DNA of 64,000 nucleotides from Escherichia coli. GTDB taxonomy: Bacteria > Pseudomonadota > Gammaproteobacteria > Enterobacterales > Enterobacteriaceae. Numbering within the stretch: the first letter of the stretch is position 1; every line of letters starts with the position of its first letter. Under the pieces are notes generated by a model, which was not told the origin of the DNA, did not search any database, and worked only from the letters and a program-made list of their open reading frames with translations. The stretch lies in assembly GCF_011045215.1 (NCBI RefSeq), contig NZ_CP049201.1. One strand, given 5' to 3'. This document shows, one piece after another, positions 705 to 34,829 of the stretch. The position numbers and the translations under genes are program-made.

Positions 705-1763
705 TTATGCCGCATCCGCTAAAACAAACATCCCGTAAGGATGGATTTCGAGGTAATAGTGCTCACCAATATCGGGCTGTAAACGGGTGGCGTTTACTTG
801 TAATAAAATCTCCTGTCCATGCCACTCTACGGTCACTTCGTACTGCGGCCCCATGTAGGCGACATGGCGAATAACACAACGCTGACTCTCTTCGCCGTGA
901 TTGCTTAAGGTGATGGCTTCCGGGCGAACGCCGACGGTGCCGCTACCTTGCGCCGGGAAATGCGCCGCGCGCGGCAGGCGATAACCGTAGATATCGACAT
1001 ACTCTTCGCTAAAGTTCGCCGGGAACAGGTTGGCGTCGCCCATAAAACTTGCCATAAATCGGGAGGCTGGCTGACGATAGAGATCCTGCGGTGAGCCAAT
1101 CTGCATGATGTGACCTTTATTCATCACCAGCACAGTGTCGGACACCGCGAAAGCTTCACTTTGATCGTGAGTGACGTAGAGCGACGTGATATTAAACTGC
1201 TTTTGCAGCTCGCGGATCTTATCGCGCATACTGCGGCGCAGGTTGGCATCGAGGTTACTTAACGGCTCATCAAACAGCAGCACCTTTGGCTTGAGGATCA
1301 ACGCGCGGGCCAGTGCCACACGCTGTTGCTGACCACCGGAAATCTGATCGACATAGCGGTCCTCGAAGCCTTCCAGATCCACCATTGCCAGCGCCTCCTT
1401 CACCCGCTGTTTCACTTCGCTACGCGACACGCCAAGCATCTTCAGCCCGTAGCCAACGTTTTCACCCAGCGACATATGCGGGAACAGAGCGTATGACTGA
1501 AACACCATGCAGATATCGCGCTGTTGAATGGAACGATGCGTGACATCTTCGCCATCAATAAAAATTTGCCCTTCGCTCGGTTTTTCCAGCCCGGCAACCA
1601 GACGCAAAATGGTGGTTTTGCCACAGCCGGAAGGACCGAGCAGCGTCACCATTTGCCCTTGTGGAATGGTGAGATTGATATTGTCGATAACCGTATTACT
1701 GCCGAATCGTTTAGTGACGTTGCGCAGTTCAACAAAATTTTTCTGACTCATAGTGCGCTCCAT
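705..1763 (-). CDS. afuC: ABC transporter ATP-binding protein, AfuC/FbpC-like
   Basis: 352-aa ORF with Walker [13 protein letters not shown] signature [15 protein letters not shown], Walker B LLFDEPLS and a C-terminal TOBE-like extension. Start codon overlaps the upstream permease stop (TAATG). Confidence 0.85.
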
Positions 1764-3841
1764 TACGCCTGGTTTTTGGCTTTAGAACGGGAGATACGAG
1801 CTTCTCCGATCAGCCAGTCAAAGAGGAAAATAATCGCCAGCATCACCACGATCAGAATCGAACCATAGGCGATGGCTACGCCATATTCGCCGTCTTCAAC
1901 GCGGTTAAGAATGTAGGCGGTTGCCACGCGGGTGTCCGGCGTGACGAGAAAGACGATGGCGCTGACCGTCGTGATGGCCCGCACAAAGCTGTAGATCAGG
2001 GCCGAGAGAATGGCCGGACGCAGCAGCGGCAGTAAAATGTGGGTTATGGTTCGCAAGGAACCCGCGCGCAGGCTGAGTGAGGCTTCATCCAGCGATTTGT
2101 CGATCTGCCCCAGACCCGCAATCCCGGCGCGAATACCCACCGGAACGTTACGCATCACCATCGAGATAATCACAATTGCCGCCGTTCCGGTGAGATAAAC
2201 CGGAGCGCTGTTAAAGGCAAGAATATACGAAACGCCCGCCACCGTACCCGGTACGGCAAAGCACAGCATGGTGGTGAACTCGATGGTCTTTTTGCCTTTG
2301 AATTGTTGACGCACCACCACCCAGGCGATGAGCAGGCCAAAGATAGCGGTAATGGGAGCGGCAATCCCGGCGTAGAGCAGGGTATCCAGCAGTGAAGGCC
2401 ACGCGCCGTCGCTCATTCCCTGACCAAATAGCTTGATAAAGTTATCCAGCGTCAGGGTGTAGTCCACGCCCCAGTTCACCGTGAAGCTGCCGTAGAAAAT
2501 GCTGCCGTAGAGCAGGGCGTTAAAGGCAATCCATATCGCAAGTATGGCGACCACGCTCCACACCAGGGTGACCGGTAGCGGCTGGACGTCGCCACGGTAG
2601 GATTTGCCGGAAACCGTGACGTAAGAGCGTTTACCAATCCACATATACTGGATGCAGAACACCAGCAGCGAGAACAGCAGCAGGAAAGCGCCAAGGGTGC
2701 TGGCGGCCTGATAATCCAGCTGCGAGCCGGTAATATAGAAGTAAATTTGCGTCGCCAGTACGTCGAAGTTACCGCCAAGTACCAGCGGGTTACTGAAATC
2801 AGCCAGTGACTGTACCACGACGATTAAAAAGGCATTGGCGAGTGCGGGCTTTAGCAACGGCACAAACACGCCGTTAAAGGTTTGCCAGCGGCTGGCGCGC
2901 AGGGTGTAGGAGGCCTCTTCCAGCGAGGGATGAATGGTTTTAATGGCCCCGTCGAGGATCATAAATGCCATTGGCGTGAATGCCAGAACCTGTGCCAGCC
3001 AGATCCCGGTAAAACCGTACAGCCAGTTGGTGTTGGTCAGCCCAAACCACTCCACCATAAATTCCGTAACATAGCCGGAGCGCCCCATCATGAGCGTCAC
3101 GCCTAAGCCGACCACAAACGGTGGCGTAACGATGGGCAAAATGGAAAAGATGCGACCAATAATGGCGCTGCGTTTAGCGATGCGCGTGGTATAAATCGCC
3201 AGCACCAGGCCGAAGAAAGTACAGCCTATCCCCACCGCTATCGACAAGACGATAGAGTTGACGATCACCTGAACAATATGTGCCTGCGAGAGCACGGTCA
3301 TAAACGCCAGCGGGGCGAACTCTCCCGCGTCGTTGGTGAACATCGGGATAAAAATGGCGATGCTCGGCCAGACGATAAAAATGCCAATCAGCGCCACAAT
3401 CGCAATCAGTGAGCCGATCACGAAGCGGTCGCCGCCCAGCCATTCGAGGCGGGTTAAGGCCAGCGTCATAATCGCGCCTAGTTCAACAAACAGCACGATG
3501 GCGGCGTAGCCTAAACCGCGTCCAGCCACGGTGGCGCTGATGACGATAAACGCCATACAGAGCAATGCCCAGCTGGCATCAAAATAATGACGACTACGCT
3601 GTTCGCGTGTGACCTCACGAAACGGGCGAACCAGCAACAGACTCGGTAACAAATACCACAGCCAGCTGATATTAAAATGCGACCAGCCATAAGCCTCGAG
3701 GATCTCATCACTCGTGGACTCCAGCAGGCCATAATCGAGGCTCCAGCTCGGCAACAGTATAAATGCCAGCCAGCCCAGCAAAACCCAAAGGAAAATCGCA
3801 TCCCGCTTTTTCACGGGATGGAGTGCAAGTGTCTGTGACAT
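1763..3841 (-). CDS. afuB: ABC transporter permease, fused two-domain, AfuB/FbpB-like
   Basis: ORF track 1763..3892 (709 aa, highly hydrophobic, two permease halves). The 3892 start is a TTG; the ATG at 3841 (MSQTLALHP) is more plausible. Start is uncertain by 17 codons. Confidence 0.8.
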
Positions 3842-3909
3842 AGCAGTTCCGGTATGGTTGGCCGGGGCAGGCGTTTGTGCTGCACCCGGCAAATACGCCT
3901 AATGCGGGT

Positions 3910-4941
3910 TTATTTACCCATCTTCACTTCGCTGACCCATTTATTAATCAATGCCTTACGAACATCCGTGGAACCATATTTATCCATGTCGTAGTTGATT
4001 AATTTCAGGTCGTCGAGCTTCAGCGAATTTGGCGACGTTTCGGCGGTGGTATTGGTCAGGATCTGATAAGACTTCCCTTTCTTCCACGCCAGTTCCTGAG
4101 CTTCTTTTGATAATACCCAGTCCACAAACAGTTTGGCGTTGTCGAGGTTGCGCGCGCCTTTCAGAATGCTGACGCCGCCAATTTCGTAGCCCGTACCTTC
4201 ACACGGGGAAATCAACTCCAGCGGCGCGCCCTGTTCTTTTTCCAGCGAGTAGTCATGCAGGAAGCCAATACCAATCGCCGTTTCGCCACGGGCGGCGTTA
4301 CGTGCCGGGGCTATGCCTGATTTGGTGTACTGAGAGACGTTGGCGTTCAGTTGTTTTAGATAATCAAAGGCCTGATCTTCCCCCCACAGCTGCGCAAAAG
4401 TAGCCAGGGCGGTGTAGGCAGTACCGGAACTTTGCGGATCGGCAATTTGAATTTCGCCTTTATATTCCGGTTTGGTGAGATCTTTCCAGCACTTCGGCAC
4501 CGGCAGGTTTTTCTCTTTCAGACGATCGGTGTTTACGCCAAAACCGAGGATCCCCACATAAACGGCAGAGGACAGATTCCCTTTCACTTTTGCCGGATCG
4601 CGGAATTTCTCCATGATCTGCTCAAGGTTAGGGGATTTATACGCCTGTAGCAGGCCCATCTCGCCAGCCTGCGATTGCGGGTCTAAAGTGCCGCCGTACC
4701 AGACGTCAGCCTGGGGGTTTTTCTTTTCAGCATCGACTTTTGCCAGGGTGCTTCCGGAACCGTTGCGGATAAACGAGGTTTTTACATCATATTTCTCGCC
4801 AAACGCTTTGGTTTCGGCCTCACACATTTCATTGGTGGCGCTGCAATAGACCACCAGCCGGCCTTTTGCCTGCGCGGCACCCGTTAAAGTCGCCAGCGCA
4901 ACGGCAGAAGCAATCAGAGTAGAGGTAAAGGTCATTTTCAT
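3910..4941 (-). CDS. afuA: Periplasmic substrate-binding protein of ABC transporter, AfuA/FbpA-like
   Basis: ORF track 3910..5268 trimmed to MKMTFTSTLIASAVALATLTGAAQA (signal peptide), giving 343 aa. Its ATG overlaps the stop of the upstream UhpC-like gene (ATGA at 4938..4941). Confidence 0.85.
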   Translation of the reverse strand: MKMTFTSTLIASAVALATLTGAAQAKGRLVVYCSATNEMCEAETKAFGEKYDVKTSFIRNGSGSTLAKVDAEKKNPQADVWYGGTLDPQSQAGEMGLLQAYKSPNLEQIMEKFRDPAKVKGNLSSAVYVGILGFGVNTDRLKEKNLPVPKCWKDLTKPEYKGEIQIADPQSSGTAYTALATFAQLWGEDQAFDYLKQLNANVSQYTKSGIAPARNAARGETAIGIGFLHDYSLEKEQGAPLELISPCEGTGYEIGGVSILKGARNLDNAKLFVDWVLSKEAQELAWKKGKSYQILTNTTAETSPNSLKLDDLKLINYDMDKYGSTDVRKALINKWVSEVKMGK

Positions 4942-6254
4942 TGTTTTATCCTTCGAGCGTGAGTGGTGGTGATGCCCGCCATCAGTAACGGCATCAGCAG
5001 TAAACCCATAAGTACTGCGGCGACCGAGAGTAAACTGAACATTCCCGGCCAGCCGTAGCGTTCGATGACCAGCGACAGCGGCCAGCCTGCCAGCGCCGCG
5101 CCAAGGTAAGCGAACAGGCCGAGAAATCCGGTGATTGAACCCGCCGCAGCTTTGTGCCCACACTCCACCGCCGCAAGTCCAATCAGCATTTGTGGGCCAA
5201 AGACGAAAAAGCCCACGGTAAAAAAGCACACTGCCAGCAGAGCGTAGTGATGAACCGGTGCCAGCCACAGTGCGGCGACTGACACCATCAACCCCAACGT
5301 GAACAGCAAAATCATTGGCGCTCGTTGCCCGCTAAACAGCAAATCCGATCCCCATCCGGCAAATAACGCGCCGAGTAAGCCGCCCACTTCAAACAGCATT
5401 ACCGTGGCGTTGGCGCTGAGCAGGTTGACACCGTGGCTTTCCGTCAGCCAGATATTGCCCCAGTCGTTAAGCGCAATCCGGATCACATAAACCAGTACAT
5501 AAGAGACGCCCAGTAGCCAGATCAGCGGATTTTGCAGCATGGTGGTGCGCAACATTTGCCACAGCCCCATCGGCGGACTTTGTTGTTCCTGACGTAACTC
5601 CAGCGGATCGTGACGCCAGTGACCAACTGTCGGTAATCCCTCTTCCTGGGGCGTGCCTTTGAGTTGTAGCGTTAACCAGATCCCTAATGCCATGCTGATT
5701 ATCCCCGGTGTCAGCATCGCGGCCTGCCAGCCCCACCAGTGGGCGGCAAAGGCGCTAATCAGCGGAATAATCGCTCCGCCAATGTTGATCGACATATTCC
5801 AGCAGCCCCACCAGAAACCGCGCTCATTGCGTGAGTACCAGTGGGTCAGCAAGCGGGCACACGGTGGCCATCCCCAGCCCTGAAAAAAACCGTTCAGTGT
5901 CCAGACCACAAGCAGAAGCGTAAGTGATTCGCCAAAGGCAAACACCACGTTCAATAACCCGGTGGCGAACAAGCCGACGCCCATAAAACCGCGTTGTCCG
6001 TGGCTGTCATGCCACAGTCCGGCGGTAAATTTCGACAATCCGTAGCTGAGATAAAACAGCGAACCCAGCAGGCCAATGTCGCCTTTATCCAGTCCGAGGT
6101 CGGTTTGTAGCGCCGGAAGGACGTAATTCACGCTTTTTCGCGTCAGATAAAATGCGGCGTAGCCAATAATCATGCACATCAGCAATCGCGGACGTAATGT
6201 CCGGTAGCATTGATTAATTTCTCTCGCTGAACGCGCGTGCATGGTTGTCTCCAT
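4938..6254 (-). CDS. MFS sugar-phosphate sensor/transporter, UhpC-like
   Basis: 438-aa polytopic membrane protein with organophosphate:Pi antiporter family features (G-rich TM helices, 12 predicted TM segments). Resembles UhpC/UhpT but sits in a separate locus. Confidence 0.8.
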   Translation of the reverse strand: METTMHARSAREINQCYRTLRPRLLMCMIIGYAAFYLTRKSVNYVLPALQTDLGLDKGDIGLLGSLFYLSYGLSKFTAGLWHDSHGQRGFMGVGLFATGLLNVVFAFGESLTLLLVVWTLNGFFQGWGWPPCARLLTHWYSRNERGFWWGCWNMSINIGGAIIPLISAFAAHWWGWQAAMLTPGIISMALGIWLTLQLKGTPQEEGLPTVGHWRHDPLELRQEQQSPPMGLWQMLRTTMLQNPLIWLLGVSYVLVYVIRIALNDWGNIWLTESHGVNLLSANATVMLFEVGGLLGALFAGWGSDLLFSGQRAPMILLFTLGLMVSVAALWLAPVHHYALLAVCFFTVGFFVFGPQMLIGLAAVECGHKAAAGSITGFLGLFAYLGAALAGWPLSLVIERYGWPGMFSLLSVAAVLMGLLLMPLLMAGITTTHARRIKQ

Positions 6255-6326
6255 GTTGCTGACTATATGAAAATGAAAGTGAAAGGGGATGAGAGAAAAT
6301 CCGGGATACCTAAGACTTTTTCCTGG

Positions 6327-7868
6327 TTATCCGGCGATTTGTTGCAAAAATGTGGGCAAGTTAACAATTACCCGCGTGCCGTGCTGTTTTTCGAGCGTTA
6401 AGTCGCCGCCCAGGGCGCTGACGCGCTCACGCATCCCCTGAATGCCAAATCCGGCCATTTTCCCGCTGGCGATCCCCACACCGTTGTCGCTGACTTCCAG
6501 ATGCAATACCTCTCCCTGCTGGCGCAGGATAATCGTCACTTCGCTGGCTTCGGCGTGTTTACAGATGTTATTGAGCAACTCCTGCAATAACCGATACAAG
6601 GTAAAGCGCACCGTTTCGTTTTCTGGTGTGGAGTTCAGTTGATAGGCAAACTGGCAATGAATGCCGCGTTCACTAAAGGCAAATTCATTAATCAGATGCA
6701 ACAACGCTTCGCGAAATGTCAGTTCATCAAGCGCGGGAGGCCGCAACTGGCGTAGCAATTGGCGGGTGGAGAGATGAATGCGGCGGGCGAGCTCATTGAT
6801 TTGGCTGGCTGCGGATTGAATTTGCGCCGGATCACGCGCCCGCTTCACCAGTTGCGACTGGATCTGAATGGCGGTGATGTTCTGACCGATTTCGTCGTGC
6901 AGCTCTCGCGCCAGGTTTTTTCGCGTGTCCTCCTCGGTGTGGATCAGCTTTTCCGCCAATGCCCGCCGCGCTGCCAGCTCGGCCTCCAGCCGTTGTCGGT
7001 AATGGTGCAGGTTTAGCGCCAGATGTTGCTGGCGACTGATGGCAATGCCCAGGCCAATTCCCAGCAAGGCCTGGGTCGCGAGGAAAATCTCCAGCTCCAC
7101 CAGGTTACTAAAGCCCACGCCAATCTGGCGGGCGATGGTGATCATCATGCTGCCCAAAAGCCCGGAGAGTACGCCACCTTGCCAGCCAAATTTCCACGCC
7201 ATCACCACATTGGGCAAAAAGACCACGATCAACAGCAGACGTTCAATTTCAGGTGACAGCACCATCTGAGTGCCGATACCAATAATAAAAAACAGGCTAC
7301 ACCAGATGATTAAAGAGGTACGCAAGGGGGGATTATGCGTATCGAGTCCCAGGAGCTGGTAGCGATGCTGCTGGCGCAGAAACTCAAAGATAAGATAGAC
7401 AAACGGCGTCAGTAATACGCCGCCGGTAAATGAGGTCAAACCCGGCAGCATTATTGGGCCCGACATAAAAGGGGAGAGCAGGGCGGTATTCAACAATGAA
7501 GCTGCCGTGACAGTGGCTAACAGCAACGTCAGACGCTGCCAGTAAAGTGGAAAACGGTGCCAGAAGTTTTGCGCAAGGAGGACAGGAAACAGGCTAATAA
7601 CCGGCGTTGCCAGCATGAGATAACCGTTCAATAGCTGTTCACTATGGAGCCAGAACATCATCAGCAAAGGGGGGAGCACCAACGCAGGCCAGTAGCGGCG
7701 AGAGAGCAAAATAACAAGGGCGAGATAAACTCCCTGAGGGAGAAACAACACTGCCTGTTGACCGTTATTGGTCAGATAAAAGCTGAGCGTCCACAGCATC
7801 AGCCAGCCGGTTCCCCAGGCCAGCACAATAAACAGCGAAATCACCCAATGACGAAGATTGCGCGACAT
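6327..7868 (-). CDS. Sensor histidine kinase, UhpB-like (MASE1 membrane domain + HisKA_3/HATPase)
   Basis: 513 aa; N-terminal multi-TM region, H-box ELHDEIGQN and NarX/UhpB-type ATPase motifs (DNGVGI, GFGIQGMRERV). Confidence 0.85.
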   Translation of the reverse strand: MSRNLRHWVISLFIVLAWGTGWLMLWTLSFYLTNNGQQAVLFLPQGVYLALVILLSRRYWPALVLPPLLMMFWLHSEQLLNGYLMLATPVISLFPVLLAQNFWHRFPLYWQRLTLLLATVTAASLLNTALLSPFMSGPIMLPGLTSFTGGVLLTPFVYLIFEFLRQQHRYQLLGLDTHNPPLRTSLIIWCSLFFIIGIGTQMVLSPEIERLLLIVVFLPNVVMAWKFGWQGGVLSGLLGSMMITIARQIGVGFSNLVELEIFLATQALLGIGLGIAISRQQHLALNLHHYRQRLEAELAARRALAEKLIHTEEDTRKNLARELHDEIGQNITAIQIQSQLVKRARDPAQIQSAASQINELARRIHLSTRQLLRQLRPPALDELTFREALLHLINEFAFSERGIHCQFAYQLNSTPENETVRFTLYRLLQELLNNICKHAEASEVTIILRQQGEVLHLEVSDNGVGIASGKMAGFGIQGMRERVSALGGDLTLEKQHGTRVIVNLPTFLQQIAG

Positions 7869-13819: not shown

Positions 13820-16819
<3,000 letters not shown>

Positions 16820-30485: not shown

Positions 30486-30556
30486 TTTTGCGTGACAGCC
30501 AGCGCCTCTGGCCCCTATAGTGAAGTAGATGTTCAACTACCAGACAGGGCCAGTTT

Positions 30557-30841
30557 ATGCTTCAAAGTAATGAGTACTTTTCCGGCAAAGTGAAATCGAT
30601 CGGCTTTTCCAGCAGCAGCACTGGTCGCGCCAGCGTGGGTGTTATGGTTGAAGGCGAATACACCTTCAGCACCGCTGAGCCGGAAGAGATGACGGTAATC
30701 AGTGGCGCGCTGAATGTGTTACTGCCTGACGCGACCGACTGGCAAGTGTATGAAGCCGGTTCGGTGTTTAATGTTCCCGGTCACAGTGAGTTTCATCTGC
30801 AAGTTGCCGAACCCACCTCTTATCTGTGCCGCTATCTGTAA
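30557..30841 (+). CDS. ppnP: Pyrimidine/purine nucleoside phosphorylase PpnP (YaiE)
   Basis: 94-aa [20 protein letters not shown]... (cupin-like). Confidence 0.9.
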
Positions 30842-30975
30842 TTCCTCGCCTTCCCCTTGAACGGGAGGGCATTTTTCTGAAATATCCTCTCTTTAACCCA
30901 TAATAATATTTCCTTTGCTGCGATTTTTTCAATTTCCGATATATTCATAATTCATCAAGGTTGATATAAATATCA

Positions 30976-33264
30976 TTGAAGATTATGAATAGAATTAATA
31001 TATTGGTCATCTGTATGGTCGTATTTTTTATGACTGGCAATGCATGTGCCACAGAGTGGATCAGTAGCGAGGAGCTTATCACCTCTGACTTTCATCTTAT
31101 GACGGCAGATGAGCGCAACGTGGTTAAAGCGGCAACCGACGATAGTATGGAAGCTGCTTATATGCTAAAAGATAATATCCGCTGGTATTATCATAATGGT
31201 GACCTATCATTACCCGCTAACTTCAGCAATAAAAATAAACTGGTGGTAAACGGTAATTTAACGATTTCCGGCGATTATGATGATTATCTGTCAGGTAATG
31301 GTCATCTGATTGTATTAGGTAATGTTATTGTCGATAACTTTATTAATCATGATTTCGCGTATGTCAAAGGACAGATGACAGCGAAAGGTTTAGTTTATGC
31401 TGATTACAATGATCATAACTTTGAAGTGATGAAGGGAATTAGTGCGCGAGGCATTATTGTTTCCGATAAAGCAACGCAATTTGAAGTCATTAAAGCTGAA
31501 TTTTATATCAATGAAGATGGAAGTGGTGAAGGATATAACTGGGATGAGAATATTCAAAAAGCCTATTCACTGGTGACTGCCGATCTTTATGATCACACTG
31601 AAATCGAAACCGATAACATTTCCAATGCGTATCCTGACTATGATAGCGTCGCAGACAACATCGTTCAGGGTTTACCGCTTTTTCGAGATAAAGCCGTTCC
31701 TGAAATTAATGAGAAATTAAAATGGATTGAAACGGGGAAACTCGATAATTTCCCAGCGAATAAAATAAAGCATCAAGATCCACTGGTGGCACGTTTTCTG
31801 ACTCATACAGAGAGTTTATCACCCGCCGTTATGCTGCAACTGTTACAGCACCCCGATGACCAGACGCGTGAATCGATGGCGCAGTCCTGGCCCGCTCAAC
31901 AGATGCATTTGCTTACCGATGAATTAATTAAAGATGAGGCTGTTGCCAGAGGGCTGGTTAAAAACAGTAATATTTCCGCCGATGTGAATAAAAAATTAAT
32001 GTCTGTACCCGTCGAGAGCGTACAGCTGGAGCAGGCCAGACAGGATAATCTTTCTCCAGATATTGTTGCGTCGTTAAGTCATAGTCCCTTTCTCAGTGTA
32101 CGCAAGACATTACTCAGCCATTACGATTACGCCTGGCTGGTTCCGACTGCAGTGGCCGATGAGTTGATAAATAACGAAGACCCGGAGTTACGTGAAAGAA
32201 TTACCGGAGCAGATTTAACCGCACAACAAGCAGTGATGTTGAGTAAAGATAAATCACTGAAAGTTCGTGAAGCATTAGCCCGGACGCTTACTGAATTAAA
32301 AATTACCCAACTGTCAGCAACCCTGCGTACAGAGGATATTGAACGTATCGCAGAACAAATGTATCTGGATAATAAAGAAAATAAAAATATCGTAAAGGCG
32401 TTATTGATAGCGTTGCCGGAGATGCGTCAACTGTCTCTGGCAAAAGAAGATGTGCACAATTTGCGCGAAGGTGCGCGTTATCTGACATCGAGGGAAGTAA
32501 TTAGTTATCTACTGACTCAGCATGATGTTCCCACCGTCTGGGATGAGCTGGCACGCGATAAATTATTGCCGCTGGAATATAAGAAACAGTTATGGCAACG
32601 CACATTAAATTTAATGATGAGCAAACGGCAAGAAGATCAAGAGCAAGCCTACGAAGTACAGCTGGCGCTGATTGATAATGGTGTTGTTGACGAAGAGATG
32701 TTAAATAATGCCATTGATTTACTGGTTGATTTACCCGCTGAATACCGCTATCGAATGCGTAACCAATTATTTGATAATAAAGAATTACCTTCCGGAGTTA
32801 TCAACAAACTCGATCAACAGTATCGCTTCAACTCTGACTGGGCGCTGTCTGTTGTCAGTATGAAAAATAGCACCCGTAGGCAAAGTGAAAGAGGATTACA
32901 CCGCTGGAACCGTGAGGATAGCGATATTTTTGCGGAACTGGCGACGATAAAAGATAAATCAGATGATGAATGGTGGCGTGCATTGCTGCAAAGTCGCAAT
33001 GATCATTTGCGCCAAACGGCATTACGCAACGCACATACCCCGGCGTCGTTGTTAACGACATTGACTGAGCCTCAGGATCGGTCGCTGGCTATTAATAATC
33101 CACAGCTGGCTGCCGATGTGAAAACGGCGTGGTTAAAAGAGGATCCATCATTACTCTTATTTGTCGAACAACCCGATCTTTCGCTGTTACGTGATTTAGT
33201 GAAAACCGGGGCAACGCGGAAAATTCGCAGTGAAGCGCGTCACCGGCTTGAGGAAAAACAATGA
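30976..33264 (+). CDS. Hypothetical secreted protein, 762 aa: Sec signal peptide, N-terminal beta-rich region, long alpha-helical repeat region (HEAT/PBS-lyase-like)
   Basis: Long uninterrupted ORF in an AT-rich block. N-terminus [25 protein letters not shown] is signal-peptide-like, with a putative cleavage site ACA/TEW. Recurring motifs such as [25 protein letters not shown] and [13 protein letters not shown]. No catalytic motif recognised. Confidence 0.7.
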
Positions 33265-33716
33265 CACAGCGCCCATGGAGCAAGTTACAGCGGGAGATCT
33301 ATGACTTACTGACGCCAACGATCAACCTGCAAATTCACTGTACCCGTTATCCCATGCGCAGCCAAAATGGTGGAAGCACCGATTTACCTCGTTATTGGAT
33401 CACGTTGGATAAAAACGTGATCTGGGATTACCCGAAAGACTTTATTGCAGGTAACGGTGGAGTGCGTAATTTTCACGGTGAAACTTGCTGGTATCCTTAC
33501 CTGACGGATATTTGTTCAATTTCTGATTTATTGCGTGAATATATTGATACCCCAAAAGCGGAGCTGTTAACAAAACAATTTACCAGCGATAAATGGGGGT
33601 TAGTGAATATTCTGCGTGCTGCTGACAGGCGAATAGGGATGAGGCGATTAGATCAGTTACGGCGTAAAACGCATAATATTGCTGCGCTAAAAATTATTGC
33701 CCGCCGTAGCGAATAA
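33261..33716 (+). CDS. Hypothetical protein, 151 aa, translationally coupled to the upstream 762-aa gene
   Basis: ATGA start/stop overlap at 33261..33264; Trp/Tyr-rich, no signal peptide, no recognised domain. Confidence 0.6.
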
Positions 33717-33740
33717 TTATATCCCTGGTGTGGCTTCGTA

Positions 33741-33774
33741 CGCCGGATAAGACGCGGCAGGCGTCGCATCCGGC
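33741..33774. repeat. REP (repetitive extragenic palindrome) element
   Basis: CGCCGGATAAGACGCGGCAGGCGTCGCATCCGGC, a classic REP-like imperfect palindrome, between the inserted operon and rdgC. Confidence 0.7.
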
Positions 33775-33793
33775 ATTAAAGGAAAATCAGCAA

Positions 33794-34705
33794 TTAACGT
33801 TGTGCTTCGCCACCTAATCCTTCAATCAGGTTTTGAATTAACGCTGCCAGTTCACCAGTCATCAGGATGAAATCGGCATCAAAACGCTGGGCGAAATCTT
33901 CACGGTCGATATCTTCGTTTTGATCGCGCAGCTCGTCGCAGAACTTCAGACGCTTGAGCGAACCATCGTCGCACATCACAAACTGAATGCGCTGCTGCCA
34001 GTCGAGCGCCAGTTTAGTCACCACTTTTCCGGCTTCAATGTGATTGGTGATCTCTTCGCTGGTCAGATCTTGTTTCTTCGCGCGGATCACTCCGCCATCT
34101 TCCAGCAACGATTTCAGCTCGGCTTCATCAAGCAGCTGGAAGCCCTGTGCCGCACTACCGGAACGTACCCATTCGGTCAGCGTCAGTTCAATCGGGTTTT
34201 CCATGCTCAATGGTACAACCGGTAACGACCCCAGGCTTTTACGCAGCAGTGCCAGCGTATCTTCCGCTTTTTTGGCACTGGCGCAGTCCACCATAATCAA
34301 ACCGTTAACCGTGTCGATCCACATCATTGTCTGGCTAAAACGGCTGAAAGCACGCGGCAACAGAGAGTGCAGCACTTCGTCTTTTAGCGAATCTTTTTCG
34401 GTTTTCTTCAGCTTACGCGCCTGTTCCGCTTCCAGTTTGGCGATTTTCGCTTCCAGCGCCTGCTTAATCACCGGAGACGGGAGGATTTTTTCTTCTTTGC
34501 GCGCGCAGATAACAATTTGACCATTGGCAACGTGCGTTAACGCATCGCTGTGCGATCCCATCGGAGGAACCCAGCCCATCTTCGCCATGTCCTGGCTGCC
34601 GCATGGGGTAAATGCCATCGAGGCTAGCTGTTTTTCCATCTCTTCTGCACGCAGCGAAATCTCGCGGCTAAGACGGTAAACCATTAAATTTTTGAACCAC
34701 AGCAT
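33794..34705 (-). CDS. rdgC: Recombination-associated protein RdgC
   Basis: ORF track 33794..34777 trimmed to [16 protein letters not shown] (303 aa). Confidence 0.93.
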
Positions 34706-34829
34706 GATAATTTCCACGGCCTTGTCGTTAAATTTAGCGGGCATGATAACGAATTGTCGGCGGCCTTGCATTGCCAATCCGGTTGTCCGTCTCTACGCTA
34801 TTGATATTGAAAAAAATAAGGAGAGTACC

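Follow-up and report, generated by a model that had tools for sequence, protein, structure and literature searches.

The described systems closest to the locus analysed here are three elements of Escherichia coli K-12 (the ykiA pseudogene, the small protein YkiD and the protein YdbD), the bactofilins, the LRV protein of Azotobacter vinelandii (1LRV) and the rAID-1 clusters of Bacteroidales. Bactofilins (BacA, TtBac) are cytoplasmic polymers. The K-12 ykiA promoter has been mapped by 5' rapid amplification of cDNA ends (5'-RACE), lacZ fusions show that the BglJ-RcsB heteromer activates it, an effect that disappears once a candidate site is mutated; the ynbA promoter, just downstream of ydbD, is also a BglJ-RcsB target (PMC3950696). 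YkiD is among the K-12 small proteins confirmed by epitope tagging to be synthesised (PMC6001520). YdbD was picked up in a methylglyoxal-susceptibility screen (Kim 2007, PMID 17846588, as cited in PMC13313352), and a 3.9-fold induction on sigma-E overproduction has been reported for it (PMC2731931); ydbD and ynbB, although expressed at very low levels, were singled out as relevant to fitness (bioRxiv 10.1101/038851). The rAID-1 clusters carry orphan immunity genes that are experimentally protective (Ross et al., bioRxiv 10.1101/471110). The present analysis concerns a stretch of 64,000 nucleotides of E. coli DNA (contig NZ_CP049201.1; hereafter the window, to which positions refer unless another locus is named), in which two genes between ppnP and rdgC are the intact counterparts of K-12 ykiA and ykiD.

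The first gene (intact ykiA; 30985-33264, forward strand) reads from the RefSeq ATG at 30985 into a 759-aa paralogue of YdbD with a DUF2773 region; the open reading frame (ORF) listing begins it at an upstream TTG (30976-33264, forward), giving 762 aa. The second (intact ykiD; 33261-33716, forward) encodes a 151-aa member of the SF0329 family and overlaps the first by ATGA. Neither contains an internal stop, and their GC contents (0.425 and 0.443) lie below those of the flanking genes (0.52 and 0.51) and of the window (0.506). An earlier note on this DNA had described just such a pair of lower-GC, ATGA-overlapping genes between ppnP and rdgC, which the ORFs, the RefSeq annotation and the base composition confirm; it had also stated that K-12 has only a remnant here, and this too is correct, as K-12-type strains differ from the window by two deletions. 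Deletion 1 (30984-32922) has cost the large gene its start codon together with about 646 codons, and what is left is the 113-codon ykiA pseudogene, joined to the original promoter and leader. The 113 codons of K-12 ykiA are the C-terminal end of the large gene (from residue 647); the DUF2773 match falls within them, and Pfam DUF2773 seems to coincide with the stretch still present in K-12. Deletion 2 (about 33293-33654) keeps the reading frame and lies within an imperfect 10-bp repeat, AGTTAC(A/G)GCG; its product is the 27-aa YkiD, in which codons 1-11 of the SF0329 gene are joined in frame to codons 136-151 (window 33261-33716 compared with 3486-3569 of the K-12-type locus L002). YkiD is therefore a deletion remnant of the 151-aa SF0329 gene and not the product of a dedicated small-protein gene. 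Two oddities of K-12 are explained in this way, ykiA being the corresponding remnant of the 759-aa YdbD paralogue.

In a survey of 5426 complete E. coli genomes, the region, which is 99.9% identical to that of E. coli PapM-32-1, proved to be accessory, as had been supposed. Both genes (the whole region) are kept in 443 genomes, O157:H7, O55:H7 and O145 among them; the middle of the small gene is present in 920; about 477 hold an intact SF0329 gene beside a truncated large gene (for example, L109); and the remaining genomes have the K-12 arrangement. Deletions or IS1 insertions (the latter seen at the locus in some strains) have eliminated the large gene from 92% of the genomes and the small gene from 83%, while SF0329 is retained in every one of the 443 genomes that possess the large gene. 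The roughly 477 genomes with a truncated large gene and an intact SF0329 gene indicate an order of loss, with the large gene going before the small one, and such an order is enough to account for the lack of genomes with the large gene but no SF0329. The large gene alone has also been lost, independently, in the ppnP-rdgC slot of a metagenomic Escherichia-like contig (L031, 7700-8453), where SF0329 is intact (89% amino acid identity) and the large gene is reduced to ATGAATAGGTAA (MNR-stop) and a degraded C-terminal trace.

Judged from substitution patterns, both intact genes are under purifying selection and are not relics in the window strain. With a divergent E. coli allele as the reference (L028, at 93% nucleotide identity and a synonymous divergence dS of about 0.2), the large gene has a ratio of nonsynonymous to synonymous substitution rates (dN/dS) of 0.17 (0.06 in its beta-helix and 0.17-0.27 in its helical part) and the SF0329 gene one of 0.05, as compared to 0.035 for aroM and 0.095 for ppnP. 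The possibility that both genes are functionless relics in the course of being lost, in the window strain as elsewhere, would suit the high frequency of loss and the probably silent expression in the laboratory; with intact frames, such dN/dS values over this divergence and a large protein still 74% identical in a cryptic Escherichia species, it is considered very improbable, and the degenerate relics that the earlier note had allowed for were not encountered.

The large protein aligns end-to-end with YdbD (b1407), at 28% identity over 743 aa (E 8e-83). This paralogue was found by tblastn against chromosomes mislabelled "plasmid" and identified as ydbD, which RefSeq names a "DUF2773 domain-containing bactofilin"; it is full length in 3834 of the surveyed genomes, as against 443 for the large gene, and lies directly upstream of ynbABCD (L110 2881-5193; L111 5087-7393). 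The sole Pfam match of the large protein is DUF2773 (PF10971; E 4.6e-44, residues 679-759, full model length), and searches of NCBIfam, PADLOC, PHROGs and PDB sequences with it gave no useful match. A word-indexed search placed the protein in Escherichia only, together with one enterobacterial homologue at 50% identity. Exhaustive searching recovered 174 representative clusters, about 40 of them full length (735-820 aa, 25-35% identity), and a contig profile scan with a second family alignment gave 7 loci.

The expectation of an exported protein with a beta-rich region followed by helical repeats was borne out by hydropathy and by an AlphaFold2 model with strands at residues 68-176. A Sec-type signal peptide is predicted, by inspection and hydropathy, at residues 1-22 (30985-31050, forward): a 12-residue window reaches a mean Kyte-Doolittle hydropathy of 3.05, an A-x-A site is present, and cleavage is predicted between ACA and TEW. 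A Trp just after this site is conserved in the family, and hydropathy reveals no further hydrophobic segment in the mature protein. Among 32 full-length homologues, taken as called, about 23 begin with what resembles a signal peptide (21 above the hydropathy threshold and two just below it). Several of those without one are apparently truncated gene calls; P0005, for instance, acquires MLKLNILTGCIIMIGLNSFAQS, cleaved before AQW, when read from a start further upstream. Only a minority of the family is genuinely cytoplasmic. A lipoprotein was considered and rejected, as the residues before Cys20 do not form a lipobox and the Cys is missing in the 74%-identical Escherichia sp. homologue.

The model, built from a 33-sequence alignment, is predicted with high confidence (predicted local distance difference test score, pLDDT, 90.9; predicted template modelling score, pTM, 0.81) and shows a helical cap, then the short strands, then an all-helical chain up to residue 758. 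The strands form a small beta-helix domain of bactofilin-like fold (residues 68-176; 31186-31512, forward), which is the most constrained part of the protein. It is followed by an all-alpha solenoid of LRV-type repeats (residues about 241-678; 31705-33018, forward) and by the helical C-terminal DUF2773 match (33019-33261, forward). The solenoid is assigned from the family, whose profile matches 1LRV (E 1.6e-15) and whose members match Pfam LRV and LRV_2; the E. coli protein alone falls below the Pfam LRV thresholds. Resemblance to bactofilins lies in the fold only, as Pfam gives no bactofilin match in the large protein. A polymerising bactofilin was rejected: the protein is predicted to be exported, and its beta-helix is flanked at both ends by other domains, which makes end-to-end polymerisation unlikely. 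In agreement with the earlier note, no catalytic motif was found in the protein, nor were other enzyme features; a carbohydrate-active beta-helix enzyme was rejected for want of a family match, a structural role being just as possible for the conserved polar residues.

The N-terminal module (residues about 55-240) also stands alone or fused to TPR or PARCEL surface repeats, and NCBIfam applied to ten N-domain relatives identified the TPR or PARCEL parts of the fusion proteins and nothing else. The beta-helix module behaves as a mobile module: it is fused to PARCEL surface-lipoprotein repeats in P0249 (500 aa), and it occurs with LRV and TPR arrays in the cytoplasmic proteins P0202 and P0230 (1012 and 1200 aa). 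In Actinobacteria (Kitasatospora, L007 6391-8585; Streptomyces, L008 and L010-L012), the family is split into two genes in permuted order, with the LRV/C-terminal gene (525 aa) first and the N-module gene (207 aa) second, overlapping by 7 bp and both lacking a signal peptide; this split form argues that the beta-helix and LRV modules act together.

By analogy with YdbD and from the nature of the BglJ-RcsB regulon, a role of YkiA (the full-length product) can be tentatively proposed: a Sec-exported, non-catalytic scaffold of beta-helix and LRV solenoid that may bind a periplasmic partner or ligand in the response to envelope stress or competition. Of the functional options raised in the earlier note, a periplasmic binding scaffold is the most tenable for the large protein, and immunity is tenable for the small protein only, as an orphan. 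A different role for YkiA would be that of a periplasmic immunity protein or shield against effectors acting in the periplasm, in which case the islet would be an orphan-immunity locus of two genes. A repeat scaffold devoid of enzyme features, sitting in an accessory and often deleted slot next to an immunity-like gene, fits this role, as does the HEAT-repeat protein YibA, encoded beside rhsA in K-12. Nevertheless, 759 aa is very large for an immunity protein, and no member of the family was seen beside a toxin, a type VI secretion system (T6SS) gene or an immunity array. In the six contexts of the large family that were compared, which are mutually unrelated, no secretion system, toxin or immunity array was found, and some homologues are flanked by housekeeping genes, pyk and gpmI for example. 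A shield role is accordingly regarded as unlikely, and the scaffold proposed above is retained for YkiA.

The small protein belongs to SF0329 (PF25753/NF049912), with an NCBIfam score of 94.6 bits against a cutoff of 60 over residues 6-148 and a Pfam E value of 3.8e-22. The earlier statement that the two genes fit no nameable system is thus superseded, both proteins falling in catalogued families (DUF2773/YdbD and SF0329), while the description of the small protein as cytoplasmic and aromatic-rich stands; it lacks any hydrophobic segment and is basic (pI 9.6). The search from the single sequence gave 542 matches and that from the profile 1405, the profile matches listed being close relatives, and the family comprises more than 1400 clusters at 90% identity. 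Conservation is unusually high, members from Proteobacteria, Bacteroidota, Bacillota, Bradymonadia and spirochaetes being 55-68% identical. In an alignment of 34 sequences (the small protein and 33 relatives), 29 columns are invariant, many of them polar (among these S7, K8, Q10, H26, C27, R44, D56, D110, D122, R124 and N139), and the conserved C-terminal helix pair is rich in Arg and Lys. PDB sequence searches with single sequences gave chance matches only, and no solved structural relative of SF0329 was found. Foldseek against AFDB50 returned the SF0329 family itself and two DUF4304-labelled proteins (A0A962PLC4 and A0A916M7E1; 32-34% identity to the SF0329 model, E about 1e-10 to 1e-12), which suggests that SF0329 and DUF4304 form one superfamily; a literature search for DUF4304 found no paper that mentions the name.

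The genomic contexts of SF0329 were compared at 49 loci from outside Escherichia, each spanning 6 kb or more. At 26 of these, the gene lies inside a run of five or more small genes in the same direction, the longest such run counting 19. A Bacteroides-type tyrosine recombinase is present in the fetched stretch at 12 loci, 60-100% identical to the copy at locus L014 (a 13th match reaches only 28%); these identities refer to the L014 copy and not to the rAID-1 reference BF9343_RS08045, and the L014-type recombinase clusters at 90% identity or more with recombinases of Bacteroides fragilis and Phocaeicola dorei. The arrays have a GC content of 0.33-0.42, and their neighbouring genes are extremely diverse, 453 proteins falling into 343 clusters, with the recurrent nameable families being Imm10, SMI1/KNR4 (SUKH-1), SUKH-3, -5 and -6, and Macro. 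Some loci are on integrative elements beside type I restriction-modification and AbiC genes or beside TerB/BrxC-like/helicase genes, and only one SF0329 gene was found on a plasmid, apart from an E. coli sequence filed as such. A 157-aa ORF in the Bacteroides defence array at L014 (9465-9935) matches the LRV part of the large-family profile weakly (E 4e-7), and short LRV proteins may themselves be array cargo.

These surroundings point to SF0329 being a cytoplasmic orphan protein of the immunity type, a reading that is plausible though rated somewhat below even. An unlikely competitor holds that SF0329 is some other single-gene island cargo, for example, an anti-phage or nucleic-acid-binding factor; the high pI with the Arg/Lys-rich helix pair, the strong conservation with many invariant polar residues, and the loci beside restriction-modification, AbiC or TerB/BrxC-like genes would suit it. 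Against this competitor, PADLOC models assigned no family to either protein of the locus, PHROGs gave no significant match (best E about 0.09), tblastn against phage records found neither protein, and the immunity-type array is the commonest context of SF0329. With immunity retained as the proposed function, conservation across phyla together with universal orphan status may mean, speculatively, that the protein acts on the target or product of a toxin and not on one toxin. ADP-ribosylhydrolase-type enzymatic immunities, which undo or block the effect of a toxin, offer a model. Non-toxin-specific immunity of this kind would explain the cross-phylum identity of about 60%, the invariant polar residues, the orphan status and the spread through Bacteroides arrays. 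A bolder extension, rated as unlikely, is that SF0329 is such an immunity of a new fold and that the ppnP-rdgC islet is a minimal interbacterial-defence locus of Escherichia under BglJ-RcsB control, with YkiA covering the envelope.

The earlier note had taken the two genes for one module (effector or toxin with immunity protein, or scaffold with partner), and this finds no support outside Escherichia: the families were never neighbours in the other contexts examined, SF0329 being absent from all 6 large-family loci and the large family from all 49 SF0329 loci. In addition, no toxin, trafficking or defence-system domain was found in the two proteins, the search of the large protein for a toxin or trafficking domain included, and their predicted compartments differ, the large protein being exported and SF0329 cytoplasmic. 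Since co-occurrence fails in both directions and SF0329 persists without the large gene in Escherichia, the two are read as independent accessory genes that share a promoter; that they are functionally independent and not a toxin-immunity pair is considered likely. The ATGA overlap implies co-transcription and probably coupled translation in E. coli, and such overlaps are common between unrelated operon neighbours.

A cognate pair, in which an exported 759-aa effector or toxin would be matched by the 151-aa protein as its immunity, draws on the adjacency and ATGA overlap of the genes, on the AT-rich accessory slot, on the relatives of SF0329 among immunity genes and on the small gene outliving the large one, in the manner of orphan immunity genes, in about 477 E. 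coli genomes and in the Escherichia-like contig. Given that neighbourhood and domain content both speak against it, this pairing is thought highly improbable. A couple specific to Escherichia and of another kind, with SF0329 acting, for instance, as a cytoplasmic chaperone, regulator or modifier for YkiA before export, is rather less improbable but still unlikely: the overlap with its internal Shine-Dalgarno sequence, the purifying selection on both genes where both are present and the retention of SF0329 in all 443 large-gene genomes agree with it, while each family stands alone in every other sampled context and SF0329 stays intact after the large gene is lost. Functional independence of the two genes thus remains the preferred reading.

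As for regulation, window positions 30500-30983, which reach to the deletion junction one base short of the ATG, match the K-12-type locus at 98.6% identity, and the BglJ-RcsB regulation of K-12 ykiA would, on this similarity, be carried over to the window strain. With the ykiA and ynbA promoters both being targets of BglJ-RcsB, the two paralogues may belong to one regulon. Repression of the ykiA promoter by H-NS is not claimed, ykiA not having been tested for H-NS in the promoter study (PMC3950696).

The locus has several further features. Upstream, ppnP (30557-30841, forward) is followed by a hairpin and T-run resembling an intrinsic terminator (30848-30870, forward; 8-bp stem with 6 GC pairs, tail ATTTTTCTGA), which separates ppnP from the two-gene operon. 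The promoter and 5' untranslated region of the operon (30871-30984, forward) are AT-rich (about 34% GC), and the whole 143-nt spacer upstream of the large gene has a GC content of 0.336. A GAGG Shine-Dalgarno sequence for the small gene (33250-33253, forward) lies inside the end of the large gene, 8-11 nt before the second ATG. Downstream, rdgC is convergent (33794-34777, reverse strand; to 34705 from the RefSeq start), and between it and the SF0329 gene lies the REP palindrome that had been noticed earlier and is confirmed at 33742-33774 (GCCGGATAAGACGCGGCAGGCGTCGCATCCGGC); its match to Rfam naRNA4, a REP-derived nucleoid-associated RNA (33742-33777, reverse), scores 27.8 bits, below the gathering score of 59.5. 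Elsewhere in the window, positions 1-25000 are at least 80% covered in only 450 of the 5426 genomes, close to the count of those that retain the ykiA operon. The contents of that part include a 992-aa autotransporter-like ORF (13820-16798) and uhpC-like and MASE1 sensor-kinase genes (705-7868), which suggests that the same lineages hold further accessory or K-12-degraded content.

Taken together, the region can be read as the ykiA-ykiD locus in its intact state, ancestral within Escherichia, consisting of two independent genes with the functions proposed above; the identity and anatomy of the genes are regarded as nearly certain, whereas with those functions included, this composite reading is given slightly less than even confidence. 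Under it, one transcription unit with its own AT-rich promoter would carry both accessory genes, probably remaining unexpressed under laboratory conditions and being activated by BglJ-RcsB. YkiA would be exported by Sec to the periplasm where, with its capped, bactofilin-like beta-helix leading into a long LRV solenoid, it would hold or sequester a ligand or partner, as a binding protein linked, like YdbD, to envelope stress; SF0329 would stay in the cytoplasm and protect against an injected interbacterial toxin; and most E. coli lineages would have lost the first gene and then the second by deletion.

Several points weigh against this composite reading. The ATGA overlap and the internal Shine-Dalgarno sequence would equally suit a true functional pair, and the cytoplasmic and split actinobacterial versions show that the activity of the large family is not intrinsically periplasmic. 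The phenotypes of YdbD are weak and indirect, and a literature search found no paper on either intact protein. As regards SF0329, none of the 34 members matches an Imm or SUKH family of Pfam, all matching PF25753 only, and identity of about 60% across phyla together with a basic pI is unusual for immunity proteins of the binding type. No cognate toxin was found adjoining SF0329 genes, NCBIfam identifying only housekeeping enzymes among the large neighbours. Almost half of the SF0329 loci lie outside arrays, other copies being solitary, and the E. coli locus itself has neither recombinase nor array and occupies a fixed chromosomal slot. Finally, the position of some SF0329 genes beside restriction-modification, AbiC and TerB/BrxC-like genes makes other island-cargo roles possible.

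Both genes are already annotated under their family names in hundreds of RefSeq genomes. The new elements are the linkage of ykiA and YkiD to full-length genes, the paralogy with YdbD, the split actinobacterial form, the unpaired state of the two families and the association of SF0329, a family without a solved structural relative, with defence arrays. The YdbD/YkiA family gains a predicted architecture (signal peptide, bactofilin-like beta-helix and LRV solenoid). Furthermore, SF0329 becomes a testable candidate immunity gene, of which an intact copy is available in a genetically tractable host, O157:H7 included. The analysis thus provides a lead on two y-gene families; it does not overturn current understanding, nor does it propose a new kind of system.

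In comparison with the systems described at the outset, the large protein differs from bactofilins by its predicted signal peptide and export and by the lack of a Pfam bactofilin match, and from the A. vinelandii 1LRV protein by a far longer solenoid and by the absence of an Fe-S domain. YdbD shares with it the N-terminal signal peptide, the beta-helix, the helical solenoid and the C-terminal DUF2773 region, but is encoded at a different locus (pdxI-ydbD-ynbABCD as against ppnP-rdgC) without an SF0329 neighbour, and the YDDY loop of the large-protein beta-helix is not conserved in it. The relatives of SF0329 reproduce the layout of rAID-1, with low-GC arrays of small genes behind a Bacteroides-type recombinase and Imm10, SUKH and Macro neighbours. 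By the rAID-1 definition (an XerD-like tyrosine recombinase in the 5' position, then at least two co-directional genes, with GC of 41% or lower), many of these relatives lie in such clusters, whereas the E. coli locus has ppnP upstream, no recombinase and a GC content of 0.43-0.44; moreover, no validated immunity gene is homologous to SF0329, for which no toxin is known. K-12 ykiA and YkiD share locus and DNA with the window, where the genes are full length and, from their substitution patterns, under purifying selection.

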